A stretch of 34,852 bases of DNA from a virus. Position 1 is the first letter of the stretch, and every line of letters begins with the position of its first letter. The stretch lies in the IMG/VR virus record IMGVR_UViG_3300026985_000012, positions 1 through 34,852 of that record; one strand, 5' to 3'. Under the pieces are notes generated by a model that had not been told where the DNA came from, made no database searches, and worked only from the letters and a program-made list of their open reading frames with translations. This document shows positions 1,046-29,296 of this stretch, one piece after another. The position numbers and the translations under genes were made by a program.

Positions 1046-1528
1046 ATGTCCACTACTCAACAGTCACTCGACGAGTTCGCGAGCCGTCGCGAGGTCATCC
1101 CCGGCCGCGTCTTCGAGCGCTACCTCTGGACCAACCCCGAAGTCTGCTCGGAGTGTTTTGCCCGGGTCCGCACCGAACACGAACTCACCGTTGACGACTG
1201 GGGGAACACTGTCTCCGAGCTCAACCGGTCGGGCTCGGGTATCCAAGGATACGACAACGTCAACGGCGGCGGGGTGTACCTCCCGCGAACGTTCTGCGAG
1301 GAGTGTGGTGGTCGGGGGCGTGCCGACCCCGATCCTGACTCGAAGCTGCAGGCGACGCGCCGGGGCTCGCGCATCGGCGATCGCCTCGAGGAGCAGGATA
1401 TCGCCGTCGACCGACCGGCACTCCGCCGAGCAGTTCGGACGCTCAAGTCCAAGCCCGAGCTCGTCGGTCTTGACAAGGAGATCTACGAGCGCGCCACGAA
1501 GATCGCCGTCCGGAGGGCGCAGCGATGA
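1046..1528 (+). CDS. Zinc-binding protein with N-terminal PIP-box-like motif
   Basis: CSEC and CEEC pairs; QQSLDEF near the N-terminus; start chosen at ATG 1046 (GTG 902 is the alternative). Confidence 0.75.
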   Translation: MSTTQQSLDEFASRREVIPGRVFERYLWTNPEVCSECFARVRTEHELTVDDWGNTVSELNRSGSGIQGYDNVNGGGVYLPRTFCEECGGRGRADPDPDSKLQATRRGSRIGDRLEEQDIAVDRPALRRAVRTLKSKPELVGLDKEIYERATKIAVRRAQR

Positions 1529-1704
1529 GCCTCTCGCAGTACGGGCGCGTCGAGTTCCCGTTCGGTGATCGACACCTCATCGGCGACGCCGTCGACTTCG
1601 AACCCGCCGGTGATGTCTCCGGACCCGACGGCCTCCTGGTCGTCGACGTCGAGGGGCTCACCTACCGCGTCGAGGAGTCACGAGTCGAGCGGTTGGACCA
1701 GTAG
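1525..1704 (+). CDS. Hypothetical protein (59 aa), stop codon inside the tRNA
   Basis: Below the ORF-track cutoff; ATGA overlap with upstream gene; MSLSQYGRVEFPFGDRHLIGDAVDFEPAGDVSGPDGLLVVDVEGLTYRVEESRVERLDQ; TAG at 1702-1704. Confidence 0.7.
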   Translation: MSLSQYGRVEFPFGDRHLIGDAVDFEPAGDVSGPDGLLVVDVEGLTYRVEESRVERLDQ

Positions 1705-1768
1705 CTCAGTCTGGGAGAGCACGACGCTGAAGCCGTCGCGTGCCGCGGTTCGAATCCGCGCTGGTCCA
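1695..1768 (+). tRNA. trnF: tRNA-Phe (GAA), CCA not encoded
   Basis: Complete cloverleaf: acceptor GGACCAG/CTGGTCC + A73, D-stem GCTC/GAGC with GG, anticodon stem CGACG/CGTCG, loop CT-GAA-GC (anticodon 1729-1731), T-arm CGCGG-TTCGAAT-CCGCG. Confidence 0.95.
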
Positions 1769-1930
1769 TGTCCCGTGGGGCGCGCCTTCTCCGGAAGGCC
1801 AGGTCACCCCCACGGGAGTGCTGAGGCACACGAGCGGCCGGCGAGCCTCTCGCACTGACGCCGGTCTATCACGAGCGGAGGGCGTTCCATGTTCGGTTGT
1901 AGTTACGCAAACCCTCAAGTCCGGTCGCCT

Positions 1931-2032
1931 TGCGACGCCACAGGTGTGGTCACGGACGGCTCTATGGGCTCGGGCGAAACCAAAGCCTGAGACGGGCCTC
2001 CCCCGTGCGGGGTTCGATACCCCGCGTCGCCT
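1931..2032 (+). ncRNA. tRNA-like structured RNA with an elongated anticodon-position arm
   Basis: T-arm CGGGG-TTCGATA-CCCCG (2008-2024); acceptor-like GCGACG/CGTCGC (1932-1937/2025-2030); D-like hairpin CCAC-AGGT-GTGG; long arm 1951-2007. Confidence 0.5.
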
Positions 2033-2039
2033 TCGACAG

Positions 2040-2165
2040 ATGTCTCGGTCTCACGACAAGCCGCCGATCCCCTCGCGGTATCGCCCCGATCGCTACCCAG
2101 CGTGTGGTTGCCACGTCGACGCCGCGGTCCCGTGTAACTGCCAGTCCTCAGCTGATGTCTCATGA
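2040..2165 (+). CDS. Possible Cys-rich microprotein (41 aa)
   Basis: ATG 2040, CGCH and CNC motifs, ATGA overlap with next gene; not acidic, so uncertain. Confidence 0.4.
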   Translation: MSRSHDKPPIPSRYRPDRYPACGCHVDAAVPCNCQSSADVS

Positions 2166-2932: not shown

Positions 2933-3508
2933 ATGACTGAGGACCTCACCGAGATCGACGGCGTCGGCGATGCGATAGCGGAGCAGCTGCGCGACGCCGG
3001 CTTCGAGACCGTCGCCGACGTCGAGGGCGCGACCGTCGATGAGCTCGCCGACGTCCACATGCTGGGTGAGGCCTCCGCGAAGGCGATCCTCGACGACGAT
3101 GACGGCTCCTCGAAGGGGCGAGACTTCACGATCGACGAGAGCGACCACGAGGACATCCTCGAGGCAGCTCGGCTCGGGAAGTCCGAACGTGGCTGTGCCC
3201 GTGCAGCCGGCGTCTCGTCGTGGGCACAACTCGATCGATACCTCGACGCCCACGACGATTTCCGGAGCAGCTTCGAGCGCGCTCGCGCACGAGGCGAGTC
3301 CGAGCTCATCGACGGCGGCCTTCGCGACGACGACGTCGACACGTCGATGGCGAAGTTCCTCCTTGCCTCCTCGTTCGACTACAAGAAGACAGAGAAGCGC
3401 GAGGTCGAGGCTGACGTCGACCAGACGACGACGCACGAACTCGGCGAAGACGAGAAGGAGATCGCCCTGGAGGCCATCCGCGAGATGCAGGAGCGTGAGT
3501 CCGCATGA
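2933..3508 (+). CDS. terS: Terminase small subunit with N-terminal helix-hairpin-helix domain
   Basis: Directly upstream of terL; DLTEIDGVGDAIAEQLRDAGFETVADV is HhH-like; central HTH (ILEAARLGKSERGCARAAGVS). Confidence 0.75.
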   Translation: MTEDLTEIDGVGDAIAEQLRDAGFETVADVEGATVDELADVHMLGEASAKAILDDDDGSSKGRDFTIDESDHEDILEAARLGKSERGCARAAGVSSWAQLDRYLDAHDDFRSSFERARARGESELIDGGLRDDDVDTSMAKFLLASSFDYKKTEKREVEADVDQTTTHELGEDEKEIALEAIREMQERESA

Positions 3509-5100
3509 GTGCTGAACAGAAGATCGCCGACGTCGCGACGGGCGAGGATCTCGGGGGGAAGCGGGACCTCCTCAACCCGTGGGATCCTGAGACGCCGGCG
3601 ACGATCCTCGACGCCGCGAACGAGCTCTGTCGGGGCTACATGCGCGACGAGCGCGACGGCTACCACCAGCTGGGCGATCACCACGGCGAGTGGCTGCGCC
3701 TCTTGGACGACGAGCGGAAGCTCGTGCTCAACTGCCACAGGGACGGGTTAAAGACGACGACGGTGCTCTGCTACATCCTCCTCCGCCTGGAGTACGACGA
3801 CGGCTTCCGCGTCATCTGGGCGATGAACAACAAGGGGATGACGAAGAAGAAGACGGACCTCGAACTCAACCGGTTCGTCGAGCGGAACCCGTGGCTCACC
3901 AACCTCCAGGAGGACCAGCGCCGAGCCGACACGATCGACCTGAAGGAGTTCGGCAACGGATCGACGCTCGTCGCGACGTGGCTCGACGGCGGGATCGACG
4001 GCGACCGCGCGCACCTGCTCGTCCTCGACGACCTGATCAAGGCACGCGGCGACGGCGACCCGGAGGACGTCCGCGAGTGGATCGAAGGGTCGGCCGTCCC
4101 TGGTGTGAAGGACGACGGCCGAACCGTGCTCATCGGGACGCGGAAGCGAACCGACGACCAGTACCAGCACTACCGGTCGATGCCGGCGTACACCGCCGCG
4201 GAGTTCCCCGCGGTCCTCGAGTACTGGGAGCAGGGCAACGCGACCGACGACGACCTCGAGGAGCGGCGCCCGCCCGAGAAGTACTACACCGAGGTCACCG
4301 ACCCGTGGAACCCCGACCAGACGGTCCACGTGCTGTGGCCGGGTGCTCGTGGCCCGGCGTGGCTCGCAGACAAGCGTGACGAGATGGCCGACTTCCGCTT
4401 CTGGCGGGAGTACTGCCTCACGTTCATCGGCGGGTCGGGGAACCTCGTCGACAGTGACGCCATCAACCTCGGCGTCGACGACGGTGGGTGCTCCATCCGC
4501 GACAGGTCGCCGCCACGGAAGTACCGCGCCGGGAAGGGCGAGGCGATCGTCGTCGGGCACGACCCGGCGATGTCACCCACGGGCGACGACGCGGCGTTCG
4601 TCGTCCAACTCCTGCGACGGAGTGGCGAGCGCGTCCTCCTCGACGCCCACGCCGAGAAGGGCATGTCGCCCTCTGGCGTGAAGGCTCGCCTCCAGGAGTA
4701 CGACCGCCGGTACGACCCGGCGCTGATCGTCATCGAGGACAACGGGATGCAGCAGTACGTCGTCGAGGACGCCATCGAGTTCTCGCCGGCGCTGCGCTCG
4801 AAGGTGACCGGCCTGTCGACGACGTCGTCGAAGCACTCGTGGGAGAACGGCATCCCGCGCCTTCGGACGCTCGTCGAGCAGGGTGGCATCCAGTTCTACC
4901 GCGGGCATGACGCCACTGAGGACTGGGTCCAGGCAGCACTCTCGCTCGAGCTCGACGACGGAAAGCTGCAGGGCCACACGCCCGACCTGATCGCGGCGTG
5001 GTACATGGCCGAGCAGGGGCTGCGCCGGTTCGAGTACGGCCAGGATCGCGACGCCGGCGACGACGATGACGATGACTCCACTGGAGTGAGCTACCTATGA
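3505..5100 (+). CDS. terL: Terminase large subunit
   Basis: Walker A-like HRDGLKTT, Walker B LLVLDDL, IGTR coupling motif, RNase H-like nuclease VGHDPA...DD and PDL. Confidence 0.93.
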   Translation: MSAEQKIADVATGEDLGGKRDLLNPWDPETPATILDAANELCRGYMRDERDGYHQLGDHHGEWLRLLDDERKLVLNCHRDGLKTTTVLCYILLRLEYDDGFRVIWAMNNKGMTKKKTDLELNRFVERNPWLTNLQEDQRRADTIDLKEFGNGSTLVATWLDGGIDGDRAHLLVLDDLIKARGDGDPEDVREWIEGSAVPGVKDDGRTVLIGTRKRTDDQYQHYRSMPAYTAAEFPAVLEYWEQGNATDDDLEERRPPEKYYTEVTDPWNPDQTVHVLWPGARGPAWLADKRDEMADFRFWREYCLTFIGGSGNLVDSDAINLGVDDGGCSIRDRSPPRKYRAGKGEAIVVGHDPAMSPTGDDAAFVVQLLRRSGERVLLDAHAEKGMSPSGVKARLQEYDRRYDPALIVIEDNGMQQYVVEDAIEFSPALRSKVTGLSTTSSKHSWENGIPRLRTLVEQGGIQFYRGHDATEDWVQAALSLELDDGKLQGHTPDLIAAWYMAEQGLRRFEYGQDRDAGDDDDDDSTGVSYL

Positions 5101-28541: not shown

Positions 28542-28744
28542 GAGACTATCGATATAGTGAATTACGGTGGTGCTACCTATAATATTGATGGTAATACACA
28601 GACTAGTGTTAGTAGTACCTTAACAAGTTATTTGTAGGAGGGGCCGCAAGTACCAGTTGACCTGGCCTTCGCGGGAAAACCCGCCGGCGCTGCAACGCCG
28701 ACGGCCGGTCACCCTAGCAAAACCCTCGTGACGAGGGTTTTCAG
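28542..28744. promoter_or_regulatory. Divergent promoter/operator region B
   Basis: A/T-rich; shares AATTAC, TGGTGCTAC, CACAG and TGTTAGTAG in the same order with region A. Confidence 0.75.
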
Positions 28745-29296
28745 ATGACCATGAGTACGTTAGACAACCGGGGTCAAAAATCCGGCCCCAACGATGAGCG
28801 GACCGAATCCAAGTACGTCCGTCGAGAGATGAGCTCGTCCGCAGTCCCGTATATGCGGACTGAAGTCAACAACTACGGCCACGTCGTGTGGCGCCAGAAG
28901 ACATCGAATCAGGAGAATATTTCTGTTCCTGTCCACCGGCTACTACTCGTCGCTGAATACGGCGTTGATGCCGTCGTCGGGAAACACGTCCACCACAAGA
29001 ACGAGATTCCATTCGACAACCGTATCGAGAATTTAGAGCTACTCGATCCCGAGGAGCACAGCCGACACCACAGCGAAGGATCCGACATCAGCGATGTTGA
29101 GCTCCTCGCCGATTTGCGAGCTGGTGCTGCTGTTCTCGACCGGCGTCCGAAGAAGTGTGACGTCAACAACTGGGGGAGCTACCACAGTTCGACTTACTAT
29201 AGACGGTTCGACGGCGACTGGGATGAGATCTGCTCACTGGCAGGTATCGACGAGGGCGGAAACATCGACGGCGACTGGTGGAGGGAGCAGGAATGA
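28745..29296 (+). CDS. HNH endonuclease with C-terminal homing-endonuclease-associated repeat
   Basis: VHRLLL...HVHHKNEIPFDNRIENLELL...EH..HH; C-terminal ELLADL....L.R.P......WGSYHSSTYYRRF..W...C..AG. Confidence 0.85.
   Translation: MTMSTLDNRGQKSGPNDERTESKYVRREMSSSAVPYMRTEVNNYGHVVWRQKTSNQENISVPVHRLLLVAEYGVDAVVGKHVHHKNEIPFDNRIENLELLDPEEHSRHHSEGSDISDVELLADLRAGAAVLDRRPKKCDVNNWGSYHSSTYYRRFDGDWDEICSLAGIDEGGNIDGDWWREQE

Follow-up and report, generated by a model that had tools for sequence, protein, structure and literature searches.

Downstream of the tRNA-Phe gene of Halorubrum virus BJ1 and of the provirus Humcor1 (Graaviviridae) lie 320–440 unannotated bases, the tRNA-Phe being the sole annotation at the locus, and the question addressed here is what this stretch encodes. 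A related copy is present in an IMG/VR provirus record, which was analysed over its whole length of 34,852 bp (the window; G+C about 66%, estimated completeness 82%) and which both viruses match at positions 1525–2036 with 72–76% identity. The original prediction, made from the window's sequence, proposed that a structured RNA of about 160 nt lies between tRNA-Phe and a second tRNA-like fold and could be excised by host tRNA-processing enzymes. No description of such a cassette RNA was found in the Humcor1 paper or in a halovirus review (PMC4284463). The features of the locus, together with those of a distant region of the window that is complementary to part of it, are collected in Table 1.

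Table 1. Positions of the cassette, its neighbouring genes and the early-operon leader in the window
Feature	Position	Strand	Remarks
59-aa ORF, phrog_37636	1525..1704	+	function unknown; ORF family also precedes the cassette in relatives
tRNA-Phe(GAA)	1695..1768	+	Rfam tRNA 62.2 bits; ARAGORN gives 1694–1769
H1 tiered hairpin	1771..1817	+	asymmetric internal loop with conserved AGGUCA; covariation
Anti-leader segment GAAGGCCAGGTCA	1794..1806	+	3' strand of inner H1 stem plus AGGUCA loop
Linker with conserved ACGAG	1818..1833	+	GTGC/GCAC hairpin here weakly supported
Long-range helix, 5' strand GCGGCCGG	1834..1841	+	covariation
Variable multi-hairpin insert	1842..1920	+	ends in conserved CAAACC..CAAG; 77–170 nt in relatives
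Long-range helix, 3' strand CCGGTCGC	1921..1928	+	covariation
tRNA-like element, non-decoding	1932..2031	+	discriminator C2031
TerS	2933–3508		downstream of cassette
TerL	3505–5100		downstream of cassette
TATA-like box TTATTTGTAG	28628..28637	+	about 28 nt upstream of leader; conserved in relatives
Structured leader (LE) of rightward early operon	28656..28744	+	folded, compensatory changes; no Rfam match
Target TGACCTGGCCTTC	28658..28670	+	perfect complement of 1794–1806; predicted leader 5' end

Homologues were sought by pattern scans of IMG/VR, of one genome per prokaryote species and of metagenomes, followed by an nhmmer pass. With chance matches of the pattern scans set aside (L007, L011–L014, L018–L020 and L082), 41 distinct homologous cassettes of about 260 nt (1770–2031 in the window) were collected from BJ1-like Halorubrum virus and provirus loci, and nine Halorubrum species genomes carry the cassette. 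A covariance model of the tRNA-like element finds one strong copy per host genome, always within a provirus (five host genomes), and in samples of 151 genomes each it matches 4 genomes from the family and 2 from the class. In an alignment of 38 sequences, the 44 tested pairs are 95.7% paired, compared with 80.7 ± 0.6% for shuffled sequences and 36–43% with slid partners, and 22 of these pairs have changed on both sides. The frequent G-U pairs indicate an RNA read from the + strand. Folding energy of the spacer is not beyond chance (z = -1.31) and that of the tRNA-like element is moderately unusual (z = -2.57); the case for structure rests on the comparative evidence. Rfam holds no family for the cassette or the leader, and a scan of 1600–2250 at E <= 10 gave no match to any phage sRNA family. 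The conservation and covariation that the original prediction had expected of homologous loci are both present, with strong compensatory base changes across about 40 distinct loci. Comparison of these relatives shows that the BJ1-like (Graaviviridae) temperate Halorubrum siphoviruses share a non-coding RNA module, at 1770–2031 in the window, that is structured, conserved and virus-specific.

One reading frame is open across the module in the window (1740–2165), and tRNA-like attP sites are common in haloviruses (PMC8707807), so that a protein-coding stretch or an integration site was considered; either is extremely improbable. The open frame is a chance occurrence because 22 of the 41 relatives have stops in all three + frames, and the indels among them are not multiples of three. 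As for integration, the Humcor1 record ends at its att site with the cassette 2.7 kb inside, viral genes flank the cassette on either side, and the compensatory changes preserve pairing, not identity to the host. Both readings were rejected on these grounds.

The spacer begins with the nested hairpin H1, in which TCCCGTGGGG/CCCCACGGGA (1771–1780/1808–1817) encloses GCCTTC/GAAGGC (1784–1789/1794–1799). This hairpin, already recognized in the original prediction, is retained in relatives with compensatory changes: its outer tiers are 96% paired and seven pairs have changed on both sides, including CG/UA swaps, as counted on a structure given by hand (RNAalifold, run on a misaligned MAFFT alignment, returned none). 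The other stems first drawn in the spacer fare differently. GTGC/GCAC (1818–1829) pairs in only about 70% of relatives, which also do not conserve the hairpin GGCCGGCG/CGCCGGTC, the 5' half of which pairs instead at long range. The resulting helix, 1834–1841/1921–1928, is 100% paired in 38 sequences with three pairs changed on both sides, and it appears in the unconstrained minimum free energy (MFE) structure of nearly all relatives. It closes an insert in which the proposed GAGGG..GCGT/ACGC..CCCTC stem is specific to the window. The repeat CACGAGCGG, noted as occurring twice, stands for its first copy, which lies within a conserved motif, and not for the second, which is not conserved. A conserved CTT (1929–1931) joins the long-range helix to the tRNA-like element, T1931 being invariant and T1930 nearly so. 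Hammerhead, K-turn/K-loop, box C/D, RNase P P4-like and SRP-like motifs were sought by eye and discarded, their defining positions being absent or unconserved.

The tRNA-like fold proposed at the 3' side of the cassette is upheld: it retains an acceptor, a T arm and an elbow. This element, referred to here as the mimic, pairs 6 bp in its acceptor, 4 bp in a D-like hairpin that has GG in the loop and 5 bp in a T stem whose loop reads GTTCGAT; its arm of 57 nt is built of three helices. Pairing reaches 100% in the acceptor and D-like hairpin and 99.5% in the T stem, and compensatory changes occur in each; the 57-nt arm also covaries, and of the GG in the D-like loop G12 is invariant and G13 nearly so. 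The acceptor/T stack comprises 11 bp versus the canonical 12. Every Rfam score of the mimic falls below threshold (tRNA-Sec 21.8 bits, cutoff 47; mascRNA RF01684 19.1 bits, cutoff 42.5), RF00005 does not match 1932–2031 even at E <= 10, and ARAGORN at default settings, with introns on or off, reports nothing there.

It is very improbable that this element hides a decoding tRNA, such as an amber suppressor interrupted by an intron, with the conserved CUA of its CUAUGGG loop as anticodon. The element has an elbow and a perfect T arm, and CUAU is invariant in 36 sequences; where an anticodon arm would be expected, however, three covarying helices are found, with a tip loop of 9 nt and internal loops of 2x4 and 6x2, and the supposed anticodon region within these helices is 98–99% paired with six pairs changed on both sides. 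There is no bulge-helix-bulge among these loops, the acceptor has 6 bp, the variable loop and the 8-9 linker are missing, and CUAU is lost in two relatives (L072 and L074). An intron-bearing or suppressor tRNA was rejected on the fold, the covariation, the failure of the ARAGORN intron search and the Rfam tRNA model, and this loss of CUAU. A 'variable-arm' hairpin of the single-sequence MFE fold (1992–2006) was likewise set aside: it is 90% pairable with zero covariation, and the long-arm fold is preferred. Positions 3 and 7 of the tip loop (1976–1984) covary between GAAACCAAA and GAGACCCAA (A..A or G..C), which suggests, on covariation, a closed loop exposing ACC. No complement of the tip loop or of the CUAUGGG loop occurs in the window.

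On the 5' side, the tRNA-Phe(GAA) of the original prediction is genuine, being called by both ARAGORN and Rfam. Among the 41 cassettes the element upstream of H1 is tRNA-Phe in 25, tRNA-Asn in two (L042 and L043), tRNA-Trp in one and a mini tRNA-like element in 11, and it is cut off by contig ends in the remaining two. In one relative (L008:6259-6541, - strand) two tRNAs, Phe and then Trp, precede the cassette. The mini element has only a 5–6-bp acceptor stem, one hairpin and a T arm; it is maintained by compensatory pairs (GUCAC/GUGAC, GCCAC/GUGGC and CCGUCG/CGACGG), goes undetected by ARAGORN and has no Rfam family at the sampled loci. The distant relatives L073 and L074 are devoid of any upstream tRNA and still contain the spacer and the mimic. 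The tRNA-Phe of BJ1 was earlier explained as compensation for codon usage (PMC4284463); that the upstream tRNA is interchangeable suggests a role as a processing handle, besides or instead of such compensation.

The stop codon of the 59-aa ORF (1702–1704) sits within tRNA-Phe, and in relatives with the mini element it falls in the loop of that element's hairpin (GGGGUAGGCCCC), so that processing and full translation would compete on one transcript. On the other side of the cassette, a 41-aa Cys-rich ORF (CGC...CNC; 2040–2165) begins 9 nt past the mimic and overlaps the next ORF (2162–2470, phrog_18714) through ATGA, and in BJ1-type relatives a different conserved sequence, ACCCCTCCGTTTCCACTCCAGATG, comes after the mimic.

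These features lend themselves to a model of release by host enzymes. The module would lie in a long + strand transcript between the tRNA or mini element and the non-decoding mimic; host tRNase Z would most likely cut after the upstream element (after A1768 in the window) and RNase P before the mimic, at a predicted site between 1931 and 1932. The predicted products are an RNA of about 160 nt (about 1769–1931), with its ends tucked into H1 and the long-range helix, and a tRNA-like RNA of about 100 nt. The base of H1 and the predicted tRNase Z end are 0–2 nt apart, three nucleotides (CUU) separate the long-range helix from the predicted 3' end, and the base preceding the mimic is U in 38/38 aligned sequences. 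RNase P recognizes its substrates through the acceptor stem, T arm, elbow, U(-1) and a single-stranded linker. In vivo, RNase P and tRNase Z of Haloferax volcanii free an RNA that has a t-element on either side, as with an engineered t-element-flanked icrRNA, and the natural 5' end of 5S rRNA is made by tRNase Z at a t-element (PMC4326828). Because of this direct haloarchaeal precedent and the anatomy of the cassette, excision of the RNA of about 160 nt by the two enzymes is plausible. Against it stand the two distant relatives that have no upstream tRNA and the 11-bp acceptor/T stack, and the helix ending 3 nt upstream of the mimic might hinder RNase P.

The proximity of that helix to the acceptor stem would also suit a single RNA of about 260 nt, in which tRNase Z alone makes both ends and the mimic is kept as a 3' domain for stability, CCA addition or protein recruitment. 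That the mimic is the most conserved part of the cassette (78% column identity), and that spacer and mimic persist together in the two relatives that have no upstream tRNA, point in the same direction. This arrangement is nevertheless judged rather unlikely, as the invariant U(-1), the single-stranded CUU, the acceptor, the T arm and the elbow are recognition features of RNase P and the t-elements of Haloferax are cut by both enzymes (PMC4326828).

A possible function of the RNA emerges from a search of the window for complements of conserved single-stranded cassette motifs. The AGGUCA loop of H1 and the adjoining strand of its inner stem are complementary to the predicted 5' end of a leader (LE) that precedes the rightward early operon. 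This leader, a folded stretch of about 90 nt, is conserved in at least 13 genomes and lies at the end of an AT-rich, divergent, switch-like intergenic region (28542–28744) with the conserved promoter motif AAGYTATWTGTAGG. We infer its transcription start from the TATA-like box alone. Its 5' strand (28658–28667) pairs in cis with 28703–28711, GGCCGG(G)UCA, around two hairpins, and a further hairpin (28723–28737) precedes the ATG at 28745. The latter, CCCUCG-UGA-CGAGGG, is followed by UUUU before the start codon (28723–28741); of the two, only the hairpin is conserved. The gene that follows the leader in BJ1 and Humcor1, the first of a long rightward operon, is that of a PadR-like or putative regulator, and a winged-helix repressor gene faces the leader in BJ1. 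The protein encoded after the leader is not conserved across relatives. Regulator and target are on the same strand, 27–41 kb apart in the proviruses and about 10 kb apart on the virion map of BJ1.

Several observations bear on this complementarity. In BJ1 and in Humcor1 the 10-mer occurs exactly twice, once in the H1 loop and once in the leader, and a control with the reversed pattern gave no match. A contiguous H1–leader helix of 12–19 bp is possible in 11/11 genomes that have both elements, plus G157, these 12 canonical genomes being mutually related and counting as few independent events. Beyond the invariant core the bases of leader and H1 covary (UUC/GAA, UCCG/CGGA and ACG/CGU), and in comparisons of matched with mismatched genome pairs the matched pair is better (permutation p = 0.015). 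In three genomes the H1–leader pairing is the best local duplex between cassette and leader, at -34 to -39 kcal/mol, compared with about -27.5 ± 2.3 to 3.9 kcal/mol for shuffled leaders, although the z-score of the trans duplex is modest (about -2.3, in two of the three). In sequence, the H1 segment nearly duplicates the 3' strand of the leader itself, A-U taking the place of the cis U-G. The 5' strand of the leader is invariant over 11–12 nt and its cis partner drifts to G-U, which is the pattern that a competitor for that strand would give. A 6-nt match of the linker CACGAG to the leader's second hairpin was discarded because BJ1 does not conserve it. It is speculation that the freed 3' strand of the leader pairs with GACCC beside the start codon, a match of only 5 nt.

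An independent lineage presents the same relationship with different sequences. In the G087 genome, a homologous leader of the same architecture and with the same promoter motif lies 38.5 kb downstream of the cassette (L074), on its strand. The 5' end of this leader, GUCCCAUCCACUC, is unrelated to the canonical leader start, and the cassette contains its perfect 13-mer complement, GAGUGGAUGGGAC, in a hairpin loop inside the domain of the long-range helix and outside H1. By our estimate, about 0.3 such 13-mers are expected by chance anywhere in 80 kb and on the order of 1e-4 to 1e-5 on the predicted target zone of about 10 nt. Three other genomes give the pairing no confirmation. G071 (L073) has a leader-like promoter and no convincing complement, G165 has a divergent H1 with only an 8-nt candidate complement, and G223, which contains a cassette, has no leader within 60 kb because the provirus is, by its composition, apparently truncated. 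The G223 cassette is identical to L021 and lies in an apparent remnant provirus of about 25 kb (G223:C1:750000-776000; L145–L146).

Complementary sequences of this kind could also be read as DNA, with the leader-start sequence and an inverted copy in the cassette both binding the viral repressor or the PadR-like protein. The predicted start point of a divergent promoter, beside a winged-helix repressor gene, falls on the leader site, whose 11–12-nt invariance would suit an operator, and two operator copies could co-evolve with their protein. In both lineages, however, the cassette copy belongs to a covarying RNA structure, where it occupies an unpaired loop at a different place in each, and this placement argues for RNA–RNA pairing over a DNA operator. 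Where the two copies differ, the changes are of G-U type, and BJ1 and Humcor1 hold only these copies. Moreover, the inverted repeat of the leader is spaced variably (46–53 bp) and includes G-U pairs, and thus fits an RNA stem, not the fixed geometry of an operator. A DNA operator is accordingly regarded as improbable.

The reading that we favour, at a probability of about 0.5, is that the cassette encodes a processed anti-leader riboregulator that is released by host enzymes and acts in trans on the early leader. We infer the trans-acting step from the conserved and covarying complementarity. The exposed segment at 1794–1806 would base-pair with the first 12–19 nt of the early leader (28658–28670), imitating and out-competing the leader's own 3' strand. 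Remodelling of the 5' terminal stem could then alter the stability or translation of the early message, and the outcome may be a delayed feedback or immunity loop at the genetic switch. It is proposed more tentatively that the host-cut RNA times or locks the early operon through this strand displacement at the 5' end and that the co-released mimic, in which the 57-nt arm is conserved, has a second function, such as recruiting or acting as a decoy for a host factor that binds tRNA.

Another role for the cassette would be pure punctuation, in which the cleavage sites, in the manner of plant mitochondrial t-elements, separate the mRNA of a replication module from that of the packaging module and the spacer has no function in trans. 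Genes are tightly packed on a single strand around the cassette, the upstream ORF stops within the tRNA, a small ORF starts just past the mimic, and t-elements are known to separate mRNAs (PMC3858429). Punctuation, on the other hand, needs no covarying RNA of 160 nt, no invariant AGGUCA loop and no conserved 57-nt arm, and it leaves the complementarity to the leader in two lineages unexplained; it is considered unlikely.

The locus represents a new RNA family with a well-supported structure. Released as proposed, it would be a natural counterpart of the t-element release engineered in Haloferax, and the riboregulator reading, if true, would give archaeal viruses their first described regulatory RNA circuit acting in trans and their first natural ncRNA bracketed by tRNAs. 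That reading makes a testable prediction: at the lysis/lysogeny switch, 1794–1806 should pair with the bases that open the leader of the early operon. A non-decoding mimic with an intact elbow is also an object for the biology of archaeal RNase P, tRNase Z and the CCA enzyme. To our knowledge, how archaeal viruses regulate their genes has hardly been explored. A single RNA regulator of such a virus was found described in the literature, the cis-antisense T_ant of PhiH, which resembles the proposed RNA in pairing with an early lytic transcript so as to change its fate (PMC4284463). T_ant is encoded in cis on the opposite strand with long complementarity, whereas the proposed regulator is encoded in trans, on the same strand about 10 kb away (virion map), with a seed of 12–19 nt, and so lacks the opposite-strand encoding of the T_ant type.

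With respect to processing, the nearest comparison is with the haloarchaeal t-elements, from which a flanked RNA is freed by tRNase Z at its 5' end and RNase P at its 3' end (PMC4326828). Haloferax belongs to the same family as the virus host, the mini tRNA-like element of 11 relatives resembles a t-element, and the mimic has an acceptor and T-arm fold adjoining non-tRNA RNA, as t-elements do. In contrast to those elements, the module is viral and contains a new RNA of about 160 nt with its own conserved fold, its processing is predicted, and the conserved 57-nt arm of the mimic exceeds the needs of processing alone. Eukaryotic MALAT1/mascRNA and the gammaherpesvirus TMERs are similar in that RNase P/Z cleavage at a tRNA-like structure ends a neighbouring ncRNA, whose structured 3' end adjoins the tRNA mimic; the cassette, however, has neither a triple helix nor miRNA hairpins and falls short of the mascRNA model. 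We know of no trans-acting anti-leader function for the t-elements of plant mitochondria or for dicistronic tRNA–snoRNA genes. In these systems, which are unrelated in sequence to the cassette, tRNA enzymes also free the neighbours of a tRNA from a common precursor (PMC3858429).

In terms of function, the proposed RNA is closest to antisense regulators of temperate phages that pair in trans with an operon leader of their own phage and control lytic functions. Satellite phage P4 encodes one of these, the CI RNA, an antisense immunity RNA matured by RNase P and similar to the C4 RNA of phages P1 and P7. A tRNA-like feature mediates the maturation of C4 by RNase P (PMC3858429). The cassette shares with this type an exposed segment complementary to a leader of its own virus (in 12 genomes, with a different 13-bp pair in G087). 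C4 and CI are bacterial, however, and the cassette has no sequence or Rfam similarity to the C4-type family, its predicted target is the extreme 5' end of the transcript, its regulator mimics the leader's own 3' strand, and its proposed release signals are whole flanking tRNAs. By sequence, the module belongs to none of the families compared here.
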